IMG/VR virus record: IMGVR_UViG_2690316028_000008
DNA: 7,242 nt
Direction: 5' to 3' (one strand)
Source of the DNA: a virus
Taxonomy: Duplodnaviria > Heunggongvirae > Uroviricota > Caudoviricetes
Made by a program: the position numbers and the translations under genes. The notes beneath the pieces were generated by a model. The model had not been told where the DNA came from and searched no databases. It was given only the letters and a program-made list of their open reading frames with translations. This document shows, piece after piece, positions 1-7,242 of the stretch. Within the stretch, counting starts at the first letter, position 1. Each line of letters begins with the position of its first letter.

Positions 1-156
1 CCTCTGACTGAGAGTTTACTCACTTAGCCGCGTGTCCACTATTGCTGGGTAAGATCACACATAGTAGCCTTTTAATTTGTATAAGTAGCAGCAGAGCCGA
101 AGTGCAAGGAAAACGTTGTGAGACGATGACGATATACAGAGCAATCATATATAATA

Positions 157-182
157 TGAAGAAAGAGCCGTGCTTGCGGCTC
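157..182 (-). terminator. Probable intrinsic terminator of the minus-strand cluster
   Basis: Read on the minus strand directly after the ORF1 stop codon (192..190): 6-bp GC-rich stem GAGCCG (182..177), 6-nt loop, stem CGGCUC (170..165), then U-rich tract UUUCUUCAU (164..156). Seen directly in sequence; stem is short. Confidence 0.45.
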
Positions 183-189
183 CAAAATG

Positions 190-1788
190 TTATAATTTCG
201 CATATATAGCATTAAACCAAGTTAATGTCTCGCCTTTTGCATCACTTGCAGTGAGCATTTGATAACTCATTTTTCCTGTAGCAAATTTATTTATCTTCTT
301 CTTCGCTTTACTTTCATTATAACGTGTTAAAGCAGATACCTCTGTTGATACATCTGTCGTATCATCTATGGTTATGTTTACACCAAACACCGCCTGAATA
401 GCATCAGGATGTAAATAATTTTCCATTTCCCTTTTTTCAGTCATGAATGCTATGGAACCATCATTTCTAGCATTTACTGACTTACATTCTTTTTCATACT
501 GAGGAGGGATGGCAACATCTCTATCATAGATGTGAACCTCAGGTTTATTTAGAATTTTTAAGTCATTATTATTAACCCAATCTTTAAGAGTATGTCCCCC
601 CATTGGAATGAAAACTATACGCGGATCATTTATCATATCAGGAACATTTGGAACACCTTGGTCGAGATAAATTTTACCGATATTCCTTAAAAAGTTTATA
701 TCATTAGGGCCTTCAACGCATACAAGAACAGATGCCCTACTATCAGGGTATACGCCAAGATCATTCGCTATGTTCTTTAGCACATCATCATTACCATTTT
801 TAACCTCTAAACCATCATCGAGTGTTCGGGTTATATGGCGTAGAGATTCTGTAGGTATCTTTTCCACAAGTGCAGGGACGTGGGTGGTAATCAATACTTG
901 GCATTTATCAGCATTTGCTAATTCTTGAAATGCATCAATAAGAAGTCTTTGATTAGATGGGTGTTGAGATGTTTCAGGTTCTTCAATTGCATAAATAACT
1001 CCTTTATCTGGGAATTCTTTTTGCAATCTTTCTGCTTCCGCTTTAAAAAAACTAATCAGGACTAAACGTCTAACACCACTACCACGTTTATTGATAGCTA
1101 TTCCTCTATCATCTTCCAATGTTAGCTTGAAAATATTTTCCCACTTAGGTTCCACTTTAAACTTTGGGATTAACCCGGCAGCAAGATTAGGAGATATATC
1201 ATGTAAATGTTTAATTGTGTTTTCAGCCACTTCAACTGCATGTTCTTTTACGCTTTCTTTAATGGATTCAAGTTGAATGTCAATCTTCTGCAATGCTGTT
1301 TGAACCGCTGACTTCATAGGATCCTGTACTTCTGATTCTTCATCGGTACTCGGCCTGTCTGCGCGGAATAATGCAAAGTGAGGGAGTTTGTCATATATTT
1401 TTTCACAAATAACCTTGCCCTCCTCAGCATTTAATTTAACGAAGATTTCTTTAAGCTTTAAATCTCCAATTTTCCTGTAAATTTCTTGTCTTAAACTAAC
1501 ATTGGACCTTTTATCAGCTCCATCAACACCAATAGATTCGGCAATTACTTTAAGTTCATCATTTTTTTTAGCAAGTAAAGATTTCGCGCCTTTTGCTGAG
1601 GGAGCCATACATTTAGCTTGAACGCTGCTAGATCCCTTACCTTTTGCAAATACTCTATATATTTCTAGCTTTCCATTACTATTTAATAAATATTCTTCTT
1701 TAAGGTTAGTTATAGATGTGGCATCCAAAACTATAGGTATATCAGCTCCTGAAAAGATACATCCAATTGACACGTCTTCATTTTCCAC
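190..1788 (-). CDS. OLD-family ATP-dependent endonuclease (ABC-type ATPase + C-terminal Toprim); frame as given starts at GTG and lacks the Walker A region, which lies upstream of an in-frame TAG
   Basis: ABC ATPase motifs: Walker B-like VIYAIEEPE, H-loop LITTHVP. Toprim motifs: VLVCVEGPND (nt ~709-729) and HIYDRD (nt ~517-525). The same frame continues upstream to ATG at 1977..1975 (MKLEKLIL-TAG-NFRGYHGEHSIDINSLTALVGRNDVGKTT) with Walker A GRNDVGKT at 1893..1867 and a GGAGA Shine-Dalgarno 3 nt before that ATG. No SD precedes the GTG at 1788. Family assignment is from motif recognition, not a search. Confidence 0.75.
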   Translation of the reverse strand: MENEDVSIGCIFSGADIPIVLDATSITNLKEEYLLNSNGKLEIYRVFAKGKGSSSVQAKCMAPSAKGAKSLLAKKNDELKVIAESIGVDGADKRSNVSLRQEIYRKIGDLKLKEIFVKLNAEEGKVICEKIYDKLPHFALFRADRPSTDEESEVQDPMKSAVQTALQKIDIQLESIKESVKEHAVEVAENTIKHLHDISPNLAAGLIPKFKVEPKWENIFKLTLEDDRGIAINKRGSGVRRLVLISFFKAEAERLQKEFPDKGVIYAIEEPETSQHPSNQRLLIDAFQELANADKCQVLITTHVPALVEKIPTESLRHITRTLDDGLEVKNGNDDVLKNIANDLGVYPDSRASVLVCVEGPNDINFLRNIGKIYLDQGVPNVPDMINDPRIVFIPMGGHTLKDWVNNNDLKILNKPEVHIYDRDVAIPPQYEKECKSVNARNDGSIAFMTEKREMENYLHPDAIQAVFGVNITIDDTTDVSTEVSALTRYNESKAKKKINKFATGKMSYQMLTASDAKGETLTWFNAIYAKL

Positions 1789-2317
1789 GCTATCGACACA
1801 TTTATCGGTAGCATCATATTTACATAGTTTATGTTCAAAGAAGACACCAAATGCGTCTAAGATAGTTGTTTTACCAACATCATTACGACCAACTAATGCA
1901 GTTAGTGAGTTAATGTCAATGCTATGTTCTCCATGATAGCCACGAAAGTTCTATAAGATTAGTTTTTCAAGTTTCATAAAAATCTCCATTTTTAAAAATT
2001 AAAATTTTATTTTTTAAAACTTACGCATTCGAAAAAACATTTGATTTTGTTGTATTCGAAGTAACAAGAACAATTTATAAAATTAGTTCAATCGAAGTCT
2101 TGGGTAAGACGCTTTTTCTCTTTAACAAAACGGATAACTACGCATTGGACAATAGATACTTTAGGAAACACGCGGAAAAATTGTAACGTTTTGCTCATTC
2201 TAGACCTGATATTCCTTCAAATTAGCAAGTTCGAGAGATAAGGGGAAATTACGATAGTCTACCAGAATCATTTCACACCTGCTCTAAACAATATGCAGAA
2301 AATAATATATGTATTTA

Positions 2318-2980
2318 TTAGTAAAGTTCTCCAGTTCCCTGATCTACACGTTTATAGAAATCAGAAAAATTACATGGGTCAGATATAACTGAGTTTTTAT
2401 CACTACGAAAATCAAATTCTATTTTTTTTATAAGATCAATGGCTGGTATAGTCGAATTTAAAGGGATTTTTTTATAGTTTCTAATTCTGTGATATTCAAT
2501 TGAGTCTAAGTCTACTTCAATCGCTTTATTACCAAAATAATAAAAATGATCTGAAATCAACACGTTATTAGAGCTAGTATCTCGTTCAAGATTTGTCATG
2601 TTAAATGAACCATCAGCATTGCTATGATGAGAATCTTCTTGTATCCATTCATTGTTTTCATTTTGATGGTAGATATTATCGCCCAGAATTTGTACATGAC
2701 TACCATTTCTAGCAGGCTTTTTGAGAGAGAACCTGGTATCCTCCCAATAACCATTGAAACTAATTTTTTCTGAAACTTTCATTAATAGGATACATTTTTT
2801 TTTAGCTGATTTTAAATTGGCTCCACCAACTCCGAGTATCCAATCACCCACTTTAGCTGACTTTCTAATTCCAGGTTTGCATGTTGCCAAGGTACAACTT
2901 CCATGAAATGGATTAGGTGCAAAACCAAAGTCTCTCGTTATTGCATAAACATAAAGGTGTGAGTTGGGATCAATTAGCAT
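2318..2980 (-). CDS. Hypothetical protein (220 aa), unknown function
   Basis: Uninterrupted 220-codon ORF, same strand as neighbours. ATG start overlaps the stop of the upstream gene (ATGCTAA). SD-like AAGGTGG about 9 nt upstream of the ATG. N-terminal region contains YAITRDFGFAPNPFHGSCTLATCKPG (Cys-x4-Cys); I do not recognise a family. Confidence 0.6.
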   Translation of the reverse strand: MLIDPNSHLYVYAITRDFGFAPNPFHGSCTLATCKPGIRKSAKVGDWILGVGGANLKSAKKKCILLMKVSEKISFNGYWEDTRFSLKKPARNGSHVQILGDNIYHQNENNEWIQEDSHHSNADGSFNMTNLERDTSSNNVLISDHFYYFGNKAIEVDLDSIEYHRIRNYKKIPLNSTIPAIDLIKKIEFDFRSDKNSVISDPCNFSDFYKRVDQGTGELY

Positions 2981-3465
2981 ACGACATTTCCACCTTGAAC
3001 TTTATCACGATCCGTACCATCAGGTTTTTCAAAGGAAGTTTTACCTTCTAGTGCGTTGATAATGGCATCACTTCTCCAGGCCACTATAGAGGTTGCATAC
3101 TTTTCGAGATTCTCTGGTAGTTTTACATCGCCTTTTAACCCATTTTCATATACACCTATGATTGGTTTTCCAAGTTGATGAGCTACTTGAATTTCCCAGT
3201 TTACCCAAGGTCTAGTATGTGTCTCTTTCCCGATAACAACTATAACTTGACTAGCCCACCTCATTTTCATTCTAAGTAAACGTGCAATCGTTCGGTCACT
3301 AAGTTTTTTTTCCTCAACTCGTCGCTGGTTTTCAGGTTTCATTCTAATAGAACTATTGCGTAAATGATAACCTTTTGCTGCAGCTAAACGAGAAACTCCA
3401 TCAACACTCGCGTCGTCTTTATGATGATGGCTAACAAAAACATTTTTCTTAATTTCTTTAACCAT
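2974..3465 (-). CDS. TIR-like domain protein (ThsB-like / DUF1863-type)
   Basis: 163-aa ORF with ATG start and AAGGA SD 7 nt upstream. N-terminal VFVSHHHKDD and central VVIGKETHTRPWVNWEIQVAHQLGKPIIGVYEN match the characteristic pattern of bacterial TIR-like (Thoeris ThsB-type) domains, including the conserved Glu in WVxxEI. Recognised by eye. Confidence 0.7.
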   Translation of the reverse strand: MVKEIKKNVFVSHHHKDDASVDGVSRLAAAKGYHLRNSSIRMKPENQRRVEEKKLSDRTIARLLRMKMRWASQVIVVIGKETHTRPWVNWEIQVAHQLGKPIIGVYENGLKGDVKLPENLEKYATSIVAWRSDAIINALEGKTSFEKPDGTDRDKVQGGNVVC

Positions 3466-3486
3466 TTTTAAATCCTTTGTAATTTG

Positions 3487-4518
3487 CTAATTATAAAATA
3501 ATTCTATATTATTGCTTTGATAATGGTATTTTTGTTTAGGCCTTTTATTGTTAAATTTAGTTCGGCATCTTTTATCTATCTCGCATGCACCACTATTTTC
3601 CATGTCCATTAAGGTGTAAACTCTTTCTTCTTTAGGCAGGAAATGGAATATTTCATCCATGTTCCAATTTTCTCTATACTTTTCAGCGATGTTATTTTGG
3701 TTTATAGTGAACCAGAATAAACACTCTTCGCTATTCATTCCATCTCTATTAGAAAAAATCCAATTAATTCCTCTTTCACAACCAGGACCTGAAATAACAA
3801 AGTTCAATTCTGTAAACGGAAAGTTGGGTATGTATGTCAGATCTATGAAAATTTGATATGCTAGAAAATCCCCAATCCCTGAGAATGATTTTAAATGTTC
3901 AAAAACTTCGAACTGATTTCCTGATGATTTTACACCATTAACGATTTTATCTTGGTTATAATAAACAAATTTTATCATTCTAATTACCATATCATTTTCC
4001 GGTATTCCTTCTATATTTTTTAAGTATTTTCCGAAGTTAAACTTCGGACCTCCTAAAATATAGGCTGCACTAAAAAATACGTAGCCTGGTTTTTTTAATG
4101 ATATGTTTATTGTCTTTTCTCTGATCTTTTCATTGATGTCGCGAATAGTCATTTTTGTGAAATCAAAGGGCGCATCAAGTTCATTTAATGTATCGCTTTT
4201 ATTTATTACTCTAAACAAAAATGAATTGAGTATTTTATTTTCATAAGTTAATTTATTGTTGTTTGTTATATTTTTCAATAACCATTTGGTTTCTTTGTCC
4301 CATGTTCTTTTAGTATTTACAAATTTATAGTTTCTCAATATTTTGTCGTCTGTCCAATATGGCGGAAGGTTAAGTATCTCTTTCTTGTAATATATGGATG
4401 TCCTCTCTCGTTGATGATAAAACCATTCCTTGATAACAGCTTCATTCAAGGTAGGTTTAGCGGTTTTAATTTTCATTTCTCTGACATTACAAAAAAGTTG
4501 ATCGTTTTTACTGTTCAC
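3487..4518 (-). CDS. Hypothetical protein (343 aa), unknown function; contains a helix-hairpin-helix-like motif
   Basis: Long uninterrupted ORF co-directional with cluster. Start uncertain: GTG at 4518 overlaps the upstream gene by 11 nt; an alternative ATG at 4476 gives a 329-aa product. Motif FSGIGDFLAYQIFIDL resembles HhH nucleic-acid-binding hairpins. No P-loop. No family recognised with confidence. Confidence 0.6.
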   Translation of the reverse strand: MNSKNDQLFCNVREMKIKTAKPTLNEAVIKEWFYHQRERTSIYYKKEILNLPPYWTDDKILRNYKFVNTKRTWDKETKWLLKNITNNNKLTYENKILNSFLFRVINKSDTLNELDAPFDFTKMTIRDINEKIREKTINISLKKPGYVFFSAAYILGGPKFNFGKYLKNIEGIPENDMVIRMIKFVYYNQDKIVNGVKSSGNQFEVFEHLKSFSGIGDFLAYQIFIDLTYIPNFPFTELNFVISGPGCERGINWIFSNRDGMNSEECLFWFTINQNNIAEKYRENWNMDEIFHFLPKEERVYTLMDMENSGACEIDKRCRTKFNNKRPKQKYHYQSNNIELFYN

Positions 4519-5065
4519 TTAATAATACCTTTTCGAAGAAATGTTTAAAACTATCAATTCCGTTCACATTGTTGTCAAAATGATATTCTGATTTTGTTTT
4601 ATTCTCAGTGACATACTTGTCGATTTCGTATTTTTTATAATTATTATTTTCCCGTTCTATATGTACTATAGTGAACTGATTGTTCTTACACCATGCGAAT
4701 TCTTCATTTGATCTTATGTCAGTAATTATTATATTTTTATTCGTCCCTCCATTTTTTTCTAAAATTTTCAACTCTTCTGATAGCATTCTAATAAATATTT
4801 TTTCTTCAATTTTCCTTAGGCTGTCTAAGCTCAGCCATATATCTCTTGGTGAATGGCTGATAAAGTCGCCGGTAGGTAAGGTTATATTGAGTGGTAACAT
4901 TTTATTTTCAGGTGGGTAATCCTTTTCCATCCAAGGATAAATATAATTGGCCAATTTTTTGAGTTGATCGCTAAATGATAATCTAATAAATCCATAGTTG
5001 GATATCAGATAATTGGCAAGAAAGTCTTTTCCACTACCCGATATGCCCATGAATGCAATTTTCAT
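4508..5065 (-). CDS. P-loop nucleotide kinase, deoxynucleoside-monophosphate-kinase-like
   Basis: 185-aa ORF. N-terminus MKIAFMGISGSGKDFLANYL has a Walker A/P-loop at the extreme N-terminus, as in phage T4-type dNMP kinases (MKLIFLSGVKRSGKD...). ATG (5065..5063) overlaps the TGA stop of the upstream TS-like gene (ATGA), suggesting translational coupling. Confidence 0.7.
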   Translation of the reverse strand: MKIAFMGISGSGKDFLANYLISNYGFIRLSFSDQLKKLANYIYPWMEKDYPPENKMLPLNITLPTGDFISHSPRDIWLSLDSLRKIEEKIFIRMLSEELKILEKNGGTNKNIIITDIRSNEEFAWCKNNQFTIVHIERENNNYKKYEIDKYVTENKTKSEYHFDNNVNGIDSFKHFFEKVLLSEQ

Positions 5066-6147
5066 AGACGGTCCTTATTAGAATTATTAAAATAATTAGA
5101 AGTTACGCTTAGATTGAAATCATTGCTTAACTTAGTTTTTAACACTATTGGTTGATTGAATCTTTCCTGGAAAATATATGATAGAGCTGCTTCTGCATAT
5201 CCCCAAAGTAAATTCCTTTCAGTTTCTACAAAGTGTTTAATAAATATTTTTTTTAGATTTTCGGTTTCCATATCTATTGTGTCTATTTTATGTTCATTTT
5301 CTGTTATTATTCTTTCAAGGAATGAAACTATATCACAGAATAATGATTTTATATTTTGTAACGATGGAGGGAATGATATTTCATCATCGTTTATCAAATC
5401 TGTCATTTGTTCTTCTTTTCTTTCGTATATTTCATTGGCTTGTCCTACTCTATCATCATATATATGAAGATTTGTTACTGATTGATGTAAGTATCCCAGT
5501 TTAATCTCGCTATCAACTTCCCTCTGTAATATTGAAAGTACTATCTCTTGAAGTAAACTAAACTCGAAAAGATTTATATTGCTCACTCCAAATATTAGAT
5601 CGCCGCTTCTTTGAACTATTTTAATGTTTAAATTTTTGTCAGGAGTGATAAAGAAATGAATTAAGTTATTACAAGGAATATCGACACTATGTTCTATGTT
5701 GTATACTTTTATGAGGCTTTCATTCGTATCTCTGTCAGGCATGTATAAGCTAATGACTGCTCTTCTTGTAAATATTCCTTCTTTTTTGAATTGTTGCACG
5801 ACATTCTCAAGTTGCCCGTGAGCGTATAGTCTTTCCCCATAAGCTGCTCGCCAAATGACACCATCATCTGAGTATTTAGGCGCTCTTGGTAAAAAAAAAT
5901 TTAGATATGGTTTAATTCTGTTGTCGCCAGCAAAAACCCATATAGCTTCAGCAAATGTGGAAAATATATTATTTTTTCGACCCGCTAAACTTAAATGCCT
6001 TGATCTAGGGTTTCGTAAGATCATACTAACATCATAAATAGTTATAGCATCCCCATTCCTTGTCGAAATACGAACTCCTTCATTAAGCACTTTTTCTAGG
6101 AGTTTCATTATTACATCGTTAATAGTTTCTCCGTAAATGACGTGCAT
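5062..6147 (-). CDS. Thymidylate synthase superfamily enzyme (ThyA-like; possibly a dNMP C5-methylase or hydroxymethylase) with C-terminal extension
   Basis: Motif-by-motif correspondence with E. coli ThyA: KVLNEG (KVLDEG), EAIWVFAGDN (ELLWFLQGDT), TRRAVISLY (SRRIIVSAW), DIPCNN (APCH, catalytic Cys; codon at 5673..5671), QRSGDLIFGVSNINLFEFSLL ([20 protein letters not shown]), HIY (HLY). About 115 extra C-terminal residues with no TS counterpart. ATG at 6147 preferred over the upstream in-frame TTG at 6153 because SD GAGG lies 8 nt before the ATG. Confidence 0.8.
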   Translation of the reverse strand: MHVIYGETINDVIMKLLEKVLNEGVRISTRNGDAITIYDVSMILRNPRSRHLSLAGRKNNIFSTFAEAIWVFAGDNRIKPYLNFFLPRAPKYSDDGVIWRAAYGERLYAHGQLENVVQQFKKEGIFTRRAVISLYMPDRDTNESLIKVYNIEHSVDIPCNNLIHFFITPDKNLNIKIVQRSGDLIFGVSNINLFEFSLLQEIVLSILQREVDSEIKLGYLHQSVTNLHIYDDRVGQANEIYERKEEQMTDLINDDEISFPPSLQNIKSLFCDIVSFLERIITENEHKIDTIDMETENLKKIFIKHFVETERNLLWGYAEAALSYIFQERFNQPIVLKTKLSNDFNLSVTSNYFNNSNKDRL

Positions 6148-7057
6148 AAACAAAACCTCATGCTATAAAAACATCTTTTTAGTTGATATAGTTTATTGGG
6201 CCTAATCCAGAATTTGGTCCAGCTATGATCTGGACTAACCGGATAGCACGTTTCAATCTCTTGCCTCTAAGAACAGGCTCGAACGTGATAGCCAATTGGC
6301 TTCCCACTTAGCAAGTGAGACCTCGACCCACGCTACCGCCCTCAGTTGCATAGGCACTGCGTTTGTATGAACATTTACAAATGTTACTCATGTTATGGGT
6401 TTGGTCAATCTGGCAATAAGATAATTACGAAACTTTAGACTTATTACTTAAGTGGAGGTGGCGCGAGTCGCTAGCGAGTAAGACTGTCTCTTATATGTAC
6501 CAGAAGCACAACTGACGATGCTCCAAAATCATAGTCACCGCTGCGTAGCAAGCTGTGGCCTCTCGCTACTCCCGGGTGCCCCAGTTACAACGTTGTGGGT
6601 TGCATAAGAAATCTGTCCCGCCGGATTAGAGTGGTGGTGGATTACTGACTGTACTCTGCGTTCAATACAGAGACAGCCCGGAACAGGCAGTAATTGATGC
6701 CGGAACGAGACTATTTAAGAACAAACCGCCCCCGGTTAGCAGGATCGTCTCGGCCGGCAGGAAAGCATGCTAACACCTACATGAAGTCCCTGTCAGTGCA
6801 GGCCCCAGACTCAACACCACCAATCTACTTTTCACCACTGCGAAGTAAGGGGCGCTACGCCCGGTTATGCAGGGGCAGTTTTTCTCCTGTGCGCTTTTCG
6901 TTCCTCTATCGGCTTCCTGTTAATCGTTTCCCAACACAACCCGTCCCGCAAGGGTAAATGGCACGCATGCTGCGCCCTTGCAGGACAGAACGATGTCGGG
7001 AAAGCGAACCGTCAGGCGATACGAAGACGAAAATCACACACTGACGGAGAAAAAACG

Positions 7058-7237
7058 ATGACGATTTCCCTGCATACCACCCGGACAAGCGCCCCTAACA
7101 CCGCAGCGGCGACCAGCGTATCCCCGCTGGACCCGTCAGGCTCCTCAAAAACGAAATTTTCTAAAACCAGAACCGACATTTACCGTAAGCGTCGTCTGAG
7201 TACCGTCTGGTCCCGAATCCAGGATCCTGTAACTTAA
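7058..7237 (+). CDS. Hypothetical small protein (59 aa), Ser/Thr/Pro/Arg-rich
   Basis: ATG at 7058 preceded by GGAGA about 8 nt upstream; ORF runs to TAA at 7235-7237 (MTISLHTTRTSAPNTAAATSVSPLDPSGSSKTKFSKTRTDIYRKRRLSTVWSRIQDPVT). Just below the 60-aa ORF-track cutoff. No family recognised; could be a remnant. Confidence 0.3.
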   Translation: MTISLHTTRTSAPNTAAATSVSPLDPSGSSKTKFSKTRTDIYRKRRLSTVWSRIQDPVT

Positions 7238-7242
7238 GCACC

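Follow-up and report, generated by a model that had tools for sequence, protein, structure and literature searches.

The window, that is, the whole stretch of 7,242 nucleotides analysed here, holds an ATPase gene, a five-gene operon and the start of ardC between the ends of elements from two IS families (Table 1).

Table 1 Features of the window, with positions counted from its first letter
Positions	Strand	Feature	Remarks
1–56		IS3-family terminal end, IS body to the left beyond the window	Non-ICE sequence; junction 56/57, ambiguous by 1 base
57–189	-	ATPase 3' intergenic tail	Identical to L001 20001–20133; leads into TIR/SLOG operon in intact elements
190–1977	-	OLD/PARIS-like ABC-ATPase (AAA_15), TOPRIM-like C-terminus	Pfam AAA_15 8e-46; PADLOC AriA 1.6e-37, Old, GajA
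2304–6170	-	DS-4-type defence module	Five co-directional genes with overlapping ends; gene set of DS-4/'NTTI' (PMC13092281)
2318–2980	-	Nmad2 protein, 220 aa	Last operon gene; 7-base overlap with TIR gene
2974–3465	-	ThsB-type TIR-domain protein, 163 aa	Pfam ThsB_TIR 4e-20; PADLOC ThsB model 4e-73
3487–4518	-	HMUDK_hel protein, 343 aa	Predicted all-helical, helix-hairpin-helix DNA-glycosylase-type fold, no P-loop
4508–5065	-	Phage-type dNMP kinase, 185 aa	Pfam DNMK 3e-10; 11-base overlap with next gene
5062–6153	-	Thymidylate-synthase (TS)-superfamily enzyme	Pfam Thymidylat_synt 1e-16; RefSeq start ATG at 6147, 361 aa
6171–6605		Non-coding linker, DS-4 module to conserved ICE backbone	Change point 6197 at its left edge
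6606–7057	+	Conserved, strongly structured non-coding region upstream of ardC, ICE backbone	92% shared with CBASS-carrying sister ICE from 6606
7058–7184	+	ardC, first 42 codons, cut by IS66-family insertion	ArdC family protein annotated from L001 27002
7185–7242		IS66-family terminal end (starts GTAAGCG), IS body to the right beyond the window	Non-ICE sequence

The first 56 bases have 100% matches in 4,269 of 5,426 E. coli genomes, at a median of 3 copies, and in one of the loci (L006) the match adjoins an IS3-family transposase gene. The last 58 bases have 100% matches in 525 E. coli genomes and in L005 lie 78 bases ahead of IS66 tnpA/tnpB/tnpC genes. Everything between, 57–7184, recurs in 12 complete E. 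coli chromosomes with 4 differences (99.9% identity). From just these 56 and 58 terminal bases we infer that the segment is IS-flanked: the IS3 end would take the place of the neighbouring TIR/SLOG operon on the left, and the IS66-family element would truncate ardC on the right, where the ardC translation reads into the IS to a stop at 7235–7237. Because the two elements cut the segment off from the rest of its parent element, this copy is most likely a decaying remnant that has lost self-mobility. The original prediction had seen the window as free of integrase, transposase, tRNA and clear direct repeats; this holds for genes, tRNAs and flanking repeats, and no mobility gene is in view, but the IS3- and IS66-family termini at the edges had been missed.

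The ATPase gene carries a nonsense codon at 1951–1953 (K9*, AAA to TAA), and the next possible start, a GTG at 1788, falls behind the Walker A motif; judged from its sequence, the gene is inactivated by this stop at codon 9. In L010 an intact homologue of 595 aa has the sequence MKLEKLILKNFRG; its match to AriA spans the whole protein (1.7e-56), and Old and GajA are matched too. Motifs VEGPND and DRD were read off the sequence. As in OLD-family TOPRIM nucleases, a TOPRIM-like Glu and a DxD motif lie in the C-terminal third of the homologue, of which the last 200 residues gave no Pfam family match. In contrast to PARIS (AriA/AriB), Old and Gabija GajA, the homologue is a single fused polypeptide, and the window copy has its early stop. 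The 3' tail of the gene contains a terminator-like hairpin at 183–164 on the minus strand.

The TS-like protein reaches 36–50 bits with NCBIfam ThyA models that have cut-offs of 108–405, matches phrog_3676 (7e-78) and has MilA CMP 5-hydroxymethylase as its nearest solved structure (2e-14). It keeps equivalents of Cys146, Arg166, Ser167, Asp169, Asn177, His207 and Tyr209, has Asn in place of His147, and bears a C-terminal extension of ~110 aa. Its probable activity is that of a C5 hydroxymethylase or methylase of uracil nucleotides rather than of a housekeeping ThyA. The kinase matches phrog_139, 'deoxynucleoside monophosphate kinase' (3e-30), and weakly the T4 gp1 dNMP kinase 1dek, and homologues of HMUDK_hel are present in thymidine-hypermodifying ViI-like phages. 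The solved chains closest to the TIR protein are bacterial TIR/ThsB structures (8wcf, 8fz9, 6lhy and 9b7d), with the RPWVxxE motif aligned. Nmad2 has a predicted PUA-like (YTH/EVE/ASCH-type) fold and is a candidate modified-base reader. In other species the TIR gene lies immediately upstream of Nmad2 in 79 of 80 loci.

On the far side of the operon, the linker is likely its promoter region, with one minus-strand promoter-like match at 6408–6381 (a consensus match only). The adjoining backbone sequence, from 6577/6830 to 7182, is conserved at 80–92% in plasmids of Klebsiella, Citrobacter, Yersinia and Serratia, and the single-strand DNA fold of 6560–7060 has z scores of -4.5 and -4.3.

Base composition had been taken to change abruptly near 160–190 and again near 6200, marking the two ends of an acquired island. 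Maximum-likelihood segmentation of the whole window gives a single change point at 6197, with a log-likelihood gain of 61.9 against a top gain of 5.2 in 50 shuffles. On the right the abrupt change is real and significant, with a G+C of 0.331 over 1–6197 and 0.513 over 6198–7242, and codon usage agrees: GC3 is 0.22–0.32 in the six genes of the window, 0.50–0.66 in the adjoining backbone genes ardC, mobC, T4CP and virB, and 0.51 in the chromosomal neighbours shiA and yeeJ. On the left it does not stand, since the segmentation does not split off 1–189 (G+C 0.434), and 200-base windows within the block also reach 0.40–0.425 (701–900 and 2801–3100); the 56-base IS3-family end has a G+C of 0.50 and the 133-base tail behind the ATPase gene 0.406. 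The true left discontinuity is the homology break at 56/57, not the shift near 160–190. The step at ~6200 is a junction inside the ICE, between swappable defence cargo, with the DS-4 module ending at ~6170, and the conserved ardC/mobilisation backbone. Neither shift is an island end.

The block is nevertheless horizontally acquired and part of a larger element, as had been proposed. We consider it highly probable that it forms the variable, cargo-bearing end of a yersiniabactin integrative conjugative element (ICE) belonging to the ICEKp/HPI family, and that its cargo set is the one of ICEKp2 of Lam et al. 2018. Relatives carry an ICE that has an integrase, att repeats at tRNA-Asn and type IV secretion genes; in NZ_CP071073 the order is asnT tRNA-Asn, integrase, ybt genes with fyuA, AlpA/xis, virB1–11, T4CP, mobC, ardC, the window genes, the TIR/SLOG operon and yeeJ. 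The 17-bp repeat CCAGTCAGAGGAGCCAA lies in the tRNA and again at L001 15507–15523, which gives an element of 61,762 bp, and in intact copies attR, the true right end of the element, lies ~4.4 kb beyond window position 1, on its left. Comparison with genomes free of the insertion bears this out: the asnT–yeeJ site is uninterrupted in 2,991 of 5,426 complete E. coli genomes. The exact Nmad2 protein is listed in 4,928 blocks of the assembly collection, and the copies examined share the same ICE context with at least five different chromosomal flanks. The element would excise and transfer via its own virB type IV secretion system, a P4-like tyrosine integrase would insert it at the 3' end of a tRNA-Asn gene, and integration would leave the 17-bp repeat at each end; this would be the acquisition mechanism that was invisible to the original prediction. 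ICEKp has the same 17-bp repeat, layout and 62-kb size (PMC6202445). In a comparison that also takes in the related E. coli HPI-ICE, ICEKp2 shares the att repeat, tRNA-Asn target, P4-like integrase, ybt locus, virB/mobBC module, an antirestriction gene ahead of the cargo and the 62-kb size, and has the same listed cargo, a thymidylate synthase, an adenylate kinase, a TIR protein and hypotheticals. In contrast to ICEKp2, the window holds just 7.1 kb of cargo and 127 bases of ardC between IS3- and IS66-family termini, no att site, integrase or transfer gene is attached to the segment in view, and its ATPase gene has a nonsense codon.

The cargo is built of modules that assort separately: the ATPase (57–2283), DS-4 and the backbone from 6606. 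Homology in Citrobacter amalonaticus (L019) spans exactly 2304–6170, and homology to a second E. coli ICE backbone (L002) begins at 2284. In a sister ICE the same slot is filled by patatin/NTase, CBASS, mCpol and Hachiman. In intact copies the 57–189 tail is followed by another 4.4 kb of AT-rich cargo (G+C 0.39).

As judged by protein identity (TS 77, kinase 71, HMUDK_hel 77, TIR 93 and Nmad2 81%; range 71–93%), the five-gene operon is homologous to the anti-phage system DS-4 ('NTTI'; DeWeirdt, Mahoney & Laub, Science 2026, PMC13092281), which has a TS, a dNMP kinase, a 5hmdU-kinase helical domain, a ThsB-like TIR and Nmad2 in the same order. DS-4 was validated experimentally in E. coli MG1655, where the five genes alone scored as protective, with replication; against lambda the -log EOP was 0.93, with smaller plaques, and in the reported data drawn on here protection was weak, about 9-fold against a single phage. 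The predicted-defence-gene tables of that paper include the Nmad2 and TS accessions of the window itself, although the clone assayed came from another E. coli strain and the window has a diverged allele. The paper offers no mechanism. The TIR protein strongly matches ThsB models, and its nearest solved structures are ThsB/TIR, as in Thoeris; unlike in Thoeris, the operon has no ThsA-type effector (SIR2–SLOG, Macro or caspase-like) and the invariant partner is Nmad2.

We tentatively propose, as a possible though doubtful mechanism, that DS-4 places a C5-hydroxymethylated uracil nucleotide in DNA. The TS-like enzyme and the dNMP kinase would yield the modified deoxynucleotide, which would enter replicating DNA; the glycosylase-fold HMUDK_hel protein would act on the modified base there, and the conserved ThsB-TIR/Nmad2 pair would sense that base or execute the response, with Nmad2 as the PUA-like reader. 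Consistent with this, the TS fold retains its catalytic and uracil-specifying residues, the kinase is of phage dNMP-kinase type, the HMUDK_hel model is nearest a phage enzyme acting on 5-PmdU in DNA, and the Nmad2 model resembles modified-base readers. In other species a glycosylase-fold protein (HMUDK_hel or UDG-like) stands beside the TIR–Nmad2 pair in 44 of 49 well-flanked loci, and HMUDK_hel or MazG_C in 45 of 49; some clusters add a dCTP-deaminase-like gene, as in the phage 5-hmdU pathway. However, the TS-like enzyme could be a methylase or act on ribonucleotides, and MilA, its nearest solved relative, prefers CMP. To our knowledge lambda DNA contains no hydroxymethyl bases, so DS-4 cannot simply sense a phage-borne modification.

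A close parallel is phage thymidine hypermodification (ViI, M6 and PaMx11; Lee et al. 2018, 2021; PMC5889632, PMC8989533), in which a DNA-glycosylase-fold enzyme works on 5-hmdU-derived bases in DNA after the steps of a TS-family dUMP hydroxymethylase and a dNMP kinase. HMUDK_hel shares ~31% identity with proteins of ViI-like phages, its predicted fold is nearest PaMx11 gp46, and gp160/gp247 homologues in enteric bacteria were already noted by Lee 2018 (PMC5889632). In contrast to the phages, the window operon lacks both a P-loop 5-hmdU DNA kinase and tailoring enzymes of the PLP, radical-SAM or FAD type, encodes in addition a TIR and a PUA-like protein absent from phages, and resides in a bacterial ICE, where it would act against phage.

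The five genes could also form one larger TIR/SLOG signalling system with the divergent neighbouring operon, which encodes a 242-aa protein, two ThsB-TIR proteins, TIR_2 and SLOG cluster 2; the window copy, having lost that operon to the IS3 element, would then be crippled. This deserves the same tentative standing. The two operons co-travel on two diverged E. coli ICE backbones with the gene between them swapped, a TIR_2+SLOG2 protein occurs in 25 of 49 well-flanked TIR–Nmad2 loci, in L060 and L062 it shares a single co-directional cluster with TS, kinase, HMUDK_hel, TIR and Nmad2, and the reported protection from five genes alone is weak. Those five genes alone were nonetheless scored as protective, and the neighbouring operon is not obligatory, because, of the 19 loci that combine TS, kinase and HMUDK_hel, 12 have no SLOG gene within 8 kb. 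Less probable, and in our judgement unlikely, is that DS-4 depletes pyrimidine nucleotides rather than marking DNA, the TS-like enzyme hydroxymethylating them and the TIR-like protein cleaving the glycosidic bond, in parallel with MilA/MilB of mildiomycin biosynthesis. Cleavage of N-glycosidic bonds is a known activity of TIR domains, and bacteria are known to defend themselves by depleting nucleotides with a dCTP deaminase or a dGTPase. Yet depletion leaves the DNA-glycosylase-fold protein and the PUA-like Nmad2 without a role, the kinase would counteract it, and the specificity position holds Asn, the residue of dUMP enzymes, where MilA and dCMP hydroxymethylase have Asp.

Given the precise IS termini that face the segment at both edges, and the frequency of IS in this cargo region elsewhere (IS1 in H7 and L016, IS3 in H13, ISSen4 in H15 and an IS30 remnant in L002), the flanking elements might be thought to form a composite transposon, the route of acquisition and not secondary damage. 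This is very improbable: transposases of the two families do not act on each other's ends, the cut in ardC after codon 42 is damage, not a functional boundary, and the same 7,128 bases are collinear with ICE backbone and cargo, IS-free, in 12 complete genomes and all ten contexts examined. That the block is a prophage remnant, with a hypermodification cassette making modified thymidine for the virus and not for defence, is scarcely credible: PHROG families are matched by four of the five DS-4 proteins (those given above for TS and kinase, phrog_2396 at 3e-60 for HMUDK_hel and phrog_6988 at 3e-17 for TIR) and HMUDK_hel homologues occur in 399 phages, but identity to phage proteins is just ~31%, Nmad2 matches no PHROG family, the P-loop 5-hmdU DNA kinase that is the hallmark of the phage pathway is missing from the bacterial clusters, neither the window nor the 20 kb to each side of it contains phage structural, lysis or replication genes, the surrounding element is an ICE equipped for type IV secretion, and a homologous operon gives protection from phage.

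The AT-rich block is foreign but ordinary DNA, the already described anti-phage cargo end of an ICEKp2-type element. New here are TIR–Nmad2 as a core pair conserved across phyla, the HMUDK_hel protein, which models as a DNA-glycosylase fold nearest a phage 5-PmdU transferase, and Nmad2, which models as a PUA-like modified-base reader. Anti-phage systems are swapped in and out at the slot between ardC and attR.

The original prediction read 160-6200 as an AT-rich acquired island with an abrupt shift in G+C at both ends. In a 200-base sliding profile, G+C ranges from 0.25 to 0.42 from the window start to about 6200 and from 0.47 to 0.56 thereafter. Likelihood segmentation of the whole window, with significance judged against 50 shuffles, returned a single change point at 6197 (gain 61.9 versus 5.2 for the best shuffle), with a G+C of 0.331 to the left and 0.513 to the right. 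The first 189 bases (1-189) have a G+C of 0.434 and are not split off by the segmentation, and the profile contains windows inside the AT-rich block that are equally rich in G+C. Third-codon-position G+C agrees with the step: it is 0.22-0.32 in the six window genes versus 0.50-0.66 in the adjacent backbone genes and 0.51 in shiA and yeeJ. Because of these three results, the right boundary is real and strong and the left boundary is not. A five-gene module (2304-6170) has its right edge at this step. The block is indeed foreign DNA, and its boundaries had been misread: the step near 6200 is a junction between cargo and backbone within a mobile element, and no edge of that element.

Every long reading frame in the window lies on the minus strand. 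The window was scanned for tRNAs and Rfam families, with no match to either. Looking for att-like or target-site repeats on both sides of the block turned up short chance pairs only, and a promoter and terminator scan stayed at chance level, save for a plausible terminator after the ATPase gene.

Protein-coding features of the window and the domain assignments on which their names are based.
Feature	Position	Strand	Source
AAA_15 ATPase	190-1788 as listed, frame to 1977	-	Pfam
Nmad2	2318-2980	-	Pfam
ThsB-type TIR	2974-3465	-	Pfam
HMUDK_hel	3487-4518	-	Pfam
dNMP kinase	4508-5065	-	Pfam
Thymidylate-synthase-family protein	5062-6153	-	Pfam

The origin of the block became clear from complete genomes. 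Window 57-7184 is found at 99.9% identity in 12 of the 5426 complete E. coli genomes and differs at four single bases from NZ_CP071073, which carries an intact copy of an ICE. The order in NZ_CP071073 is tRNA-Asn (asnT), a tyrosine integrase, ybtS to fyuA (yersiniabactin), AlpA, a complete virB type IV secretion system, the coupling protein, mobC, ardC, the window genes, a divergent TIR/SLOG operon and yeeJ. A 17-bp direct repeat, CCAGTCAGAGGAGCCAA, lies in the 3' end of the tRNA-Asn (L004, one region of this genome, 13494-13510), with its second copy (L001, a second region, 15507-15523) separating the TIR/SLOG operon from yeeJ; the two copies delimit 61,762 bp, and the repeat is not found in the window itself. 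A P4-like integrase, the ybt locus, xis, virB and mobBC are annotated between the repeats and none of these is present in the window, where ardC lies directly to the right of the cargo, from 7058 onwards. ICEKp elements have the same repeat and module order, and the Table S6 cargo entry for ICEKp2 matches the cargo genes of the window (Lam et al. 2018, PMC6202445). Genomes without the insertion, the comparison proposed with the original prediction, do exist: a constructed query that joins tRNA-Asn to the yeeJ flank, representing the empty site, has an uninterrupted match in 2991 of the 5426 genomes, many of these at 100% identity. The assembly collection lists 4928 blocks with an Nmad2 protein identical to that of the window, and in the exact copies inspected the intact ICE context is constant and the chromosomal flanks vary (yeeJ, ldtA-cobT, ABC1/GGDEF, Na/H exchanger, GAPDH), as is expected of an element that can insert into more than one tRNA-Asn gene and in several hosts. 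The reading as a native low-G+C housekeeping operon was rejected, given that 99.7% of complete E. coli genomes lack the genes and that the empty site is widespread; the reading as a prophage remnant was rejected too. Hence, the block is shown to be ICE cargo, and the integration chemistry and transfer genes of the element explain its acquisition. It has been described twice before, as ICEKp2 cargo in 2018 and as a defence system in 2026.

In the window, this context is cut off on both sides. ICE sequence stops at 56/57 and 7184/7185, where IS3- and IS66-family termini begin, and the first 56 and last 58 bases have zero match to the ICE. Bases 1-56 are a repeat found in 4269 genomes (median 3 copies) that adjoins an IS3-family transposase gene, and 7185-7242, starting with GTAAGCG, is a repeat in 525 genomes located 78 bases ahead of IS66-family tnpA/tnpB/tnpC. 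The segment is therefore bounded by two unrelated IS, through either two simple insertions or a larger rearrangement, so that the TIR/SLOG operon with attR and ardC with the transfer genes are no longer adjacent to it; with IS termini at both edges, it is not joined to a complete mobile element within the window. A composite transposon was considered and rejected. The original prediction, that the mechanism was not evident and the island might belong to a larger element, rightly noted that tRNA and att-like repeats are absent from the window and missed the ICE and IS context. The true edges came from homology: intact copies show them as att repeats, the window copy as IS termini. Exact scans of JGI metagenome contigs gave 0 matches for each of the left and right IS junctions.

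At the right junction, ardC has a good Shine-Dalgarno sequence and is cut after 42 codons, and its frame enters the IS and then stops; exact look-up gave no record of the resulting chimeric 59-aa ArdC'-IS66 reading frame. Matches to PLSDB plasmids cover the ardC-upstream part only, and approximately 450 non-coding bases upstream of ardC are kept at 80-92% in Klebsiella, Citrobacter, Enterobacter, Yersinia and Serratia plasmids. Folded as single-stranded DNA, either strand of 6560-7060 is far more structured than its shuffles (z -4.5 and -4.3), and the region could be a single-strand (Frpo-like) promoter for a leading-region anti-restriction gene. A 34-base imperfect inverted repeat (6832-6865 / 7079-7112, 74% complementary) flanks the ardC start codon and may be part of this structured region.

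The same ICE backbone carries other cargo elsewhere. In the sister ICE of E. coli AR_0128 (L003 3609-19992), the stretch from yeeJ to ardC holds patatin-like phospholipase/nucleotidyltransferase genes, a DncV CBASS with Cap2/Cap3 and an mCpol gene, Hachiman lies between ardC and mobC, and homology to the window begins at 6606. Because this element holds other defence systems around ardC on the same backbone, the ardC neighbourhood of this ICE family is a defence hotspot and cargo swap site. In a second E. coli backbone (22AR0118), termed 92%-diverged, the TIR/SLOG and five-gene operons are kept and a restriction endonuclease and an IS30 remnant replace the ATPase, and on a Citrobacter amalonaticus chromosome homology spans 2304-6170 alone. 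The AT-rich block therefore consists of at least two modules that assort independently, the ATPase (57-2283) and the five-gene operon (2304-6170). The 22AR0118 copy also has a tyrosine integrase pseudogene with an internal stop beside the TIR/SLOG operon, at the cargo end (L002 1582-2844), which suggests a different arrangement or a tandem element.

In intact ICEs, the TIR/SLOG operon lies 4.4 kb to the left of the window (L001 15986-19889); its products are a 242-aa protein, two ThsB-TIR proteins, a TIR_2 protein and a SLOG cluster 2 protein, an architecture resembling the proposed 'type III Thoeris'. The 242-aa protein, WP_023143484, is a predicted defence gene with a DUF6650 match (DeWeirdt et al., PMC13092281).

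The ATPase frame of the window has a TAA at codon 9 (1951-1953, MKLEKLIL*NFRGY, K9*), and the next possible start codon falls after the Walker A motif, so the product, like that of the NZ_CP071073 copy, which is identical at codon 9 and shares the nonsense codon, is probably inactive. An otherwise 99% identical copy (L010, GCA_044954285.1) has AAA at this position and is the only one seen with an intact gene; its 595-residue product is matched over the full length by PADLOC's AriA model (1.7e-56), with further matches to Old and GajA. For nine of ten listed copies, gene callers yield a truncated ATPase (406-576 aa) or none, these lengths being gene-caller products only, and the nonsense codon may have spread with the element. 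The last 203 residues have no Pfam match; GajA model PDLC04168 aligns as far as residue 527, and visual inspection alone points to TOPRIM-like Glu and DxD motifs in the C-terminal third. The gene encodes an ABC ATPase of the AriA/OLD type, as in PARIS and OLD-family nucleases, in a broken frame, and bona fide PARIS was rejected because the ATPase is fused and carries the nonsense codon.

The second module, TS / dNMP kinase / HMUDK_hel / TIR / Nmad2, has the same gene order as the validated clone of DS-4 ('NTTI'), one of 42 predicted E. coli systems validated by DeWeirdt, Mahoney and Laub (Science 2026, PMC13092281), who termed its thymidylate synthase and 5-hydroxymethyluracil kinase domains new to defence. 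Identities between window and DS-4 proteins are 77, 71, 77, 93 and 81%, and the window's own Nmad2 and TS accessions sit in the predicted-defence tables of that study (PMC13092281). A phenotype reported for DS-4 there is a -log EOP of 0.93 for lambda with smaller plaques, and no DS-4 mechanism is given (PMC13092281). The homologous operon has thus been shown to protect against phage, and the window allele may do so. Among validated defence systems, DS-4 is the first to combine a thymidylate-synthase-like enzyme with a protein of the 5-hmdU pathway, and PADLOC has no models for four of its five proteins.

The TS-like protein falls far below the NCBIfam equivalog cut-offs for ThyA (EC 2.1.1.45; 36-50 bits versus 108-405) and is nearest to phage TS families and, among solved structures, to the CMP hydroxymethylase MilA, with which its catalytic Cys also aligns. 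Its C161, R182, S183, D185, N194, H230 and Y232 correspond to E. coli C146, R166, S167, D169, N177, H207 and Y209, a correspondence that holds at the motif level only. The phosphate-binding Arg/Ser are kept, the residue that separates dUMP enzymes (Asn) from cytosine-specific ones (Asp) is Asn here, and there is a long C-terminal extension. These motifs place it in the thymidylate synthase superfamily, which includes pyrimidine hydroxymethylases. The kinase is of the phage dNMP-kinase type and matches dNMP-kinase families, not the 5-HMUDK P-loop family. In 5-hmdU DNA kinase (5-HMUDK), a P-loop domain is joined to a helical domain, a combination absent from the window proteins; the 343-aa HMUDK_hel protein matches the helical domain only, with no Walker A motif seen in its sequence. 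Since PDB sequence searches with Nmad2 and HMUDK_hel gave nothing usable, their folds were taken from structure prediction, and the modelled HMUDK_hel is similar to solved members of the helix-hairpin-helix DNA-glycosylase / aGPT-Pplase fold. Nmad2 is, by its modelled fold, a candidate for the PUA-like modified-base readers (YTH/EVE/ASCH). A 593-aa protein (P0169) has an HMUDK_hel homologue fused to an N6_N4 DNA methyltransferase domain (PF01555), which is independent support for the helical domain working on DNA. A literature search for 'Nmad2' returned unrelated papers only. The TIR protein is ThsB-like, with the conserved Glu motif aligned, as in Thoeris; a ThsA-type effector is missing, as Pfam assigns none of the window proteins a SIR2, Macro, SLOG or protease domain and the only SLOG2 gene is in the neighbouring operon. 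Bona fide Thoeris was therefore rejected.

At least 583 candidate stretches of species-representative genomes have a confirmed relative of Nmad2, and a ThsB-type TIR gene is immediately upstream, usually overlapping, in 79 of the 80 loci kept, which come from 80 species (L017-L096). The pair ranges from Enterobacterales to Bacteroidota, Nitrospirota, Acidobacteriota and Verrucomicrobia, with one Promethearchaeota (Asgard) MAG. Partners were counted in the 49 loci flanked by 5 kb or more on each side: HMUDK_hel is present in 28, a UDG-superfamily gene in 16 and either in 44, along with MazG/MazG_C (27), a TIR_2 and SLOG cluster 2 protein (25), a TS-like gene (14), a kinase (12) and a dCTP-deaminase-like gene (8). 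Three architectures recur with TIR-Nmad2 (TS, kinase and HMUDK_hel; MazG_C and HMUDK_hel; MazG_C and UDG), often accompanied by TIR_2-SLOG2. This association is partly known, given that DeWeirdt et al. (PMC13092281) list an unvalidated MazG / MazG-C / NMAD / UDG system. Two distant bacteria (L060 and L062) encode TS, kinase, HMUDK_hel, TIR, Nmad2 and TIR_2-SLOG2 in one co-directional cluster, and the ICEKp2 neighbour operon, missing from the window, encodes TIR_2 and SLOG2 proteins as in these clusters.

For DS-4 itself, we tentatively propose a modified-base mechanism. The TS-like enzyme and kinase would make a uracil deoxynucleotide modified at C5, probably by hydroxymethylation, in the manner of the pre-replicative steps of the phage 5-hmdU pathway; the base, once in DNA, would be acted on by the glycosylase-fold protein; and the TIR/Nmad2 pair would read the modified base and then signal or execute. 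Dependence on the neighbouring TIR/SLOG operon is possible to a similar degree and is compatible with either this mechanism or nucleotide depletion. Depletion on the MilA/MilB pattern seems improbable to us. A broader extension of the modified-base reading is more doubtful than the DS-4 chain itself: ThsB-TIR/Nmad2 might be the universal core of a widespread and modular defence class, present in at least 583 species, combined with a nucleotide-pool module (a TS-like hydroxymethylase and kinase, sometimes with a dCTP deaminase, or MazG/MazG_C), a glycosylase-fold protein (HMUDK_hel or UDG-like) and often TIR_2-SLOG2. 5-Hydroxymethyl-uracil would be loaded into replicating DNA and then processed, with Nmad2 as a PUA-like reader, HMUDK_hel as a base-flipping enzyme and TIR as signal or effector, and the ICEKp2 cargo, DS-4 plus the TIR/SLOG operon, would be one such system. 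If true, bacteria would here be turning the hypermodification chemistry of phages against them.

As a compositional island, the block is a textbook case with value mainly as a calibration point, in which an abrupt G+C step marks an internal cargo/backbone junction of a mobile element and not the element's edge. The fold assignments and the gene-neighbourhood pattern give directly testable hypotheses on how DS-4 works. At its right end, the yersiniabactin ICE of Klebsiella and E. coli, a clinically important element, has anti-phage systems that can be exchanged, which is relevant to phage therapy against strains with this ICE.
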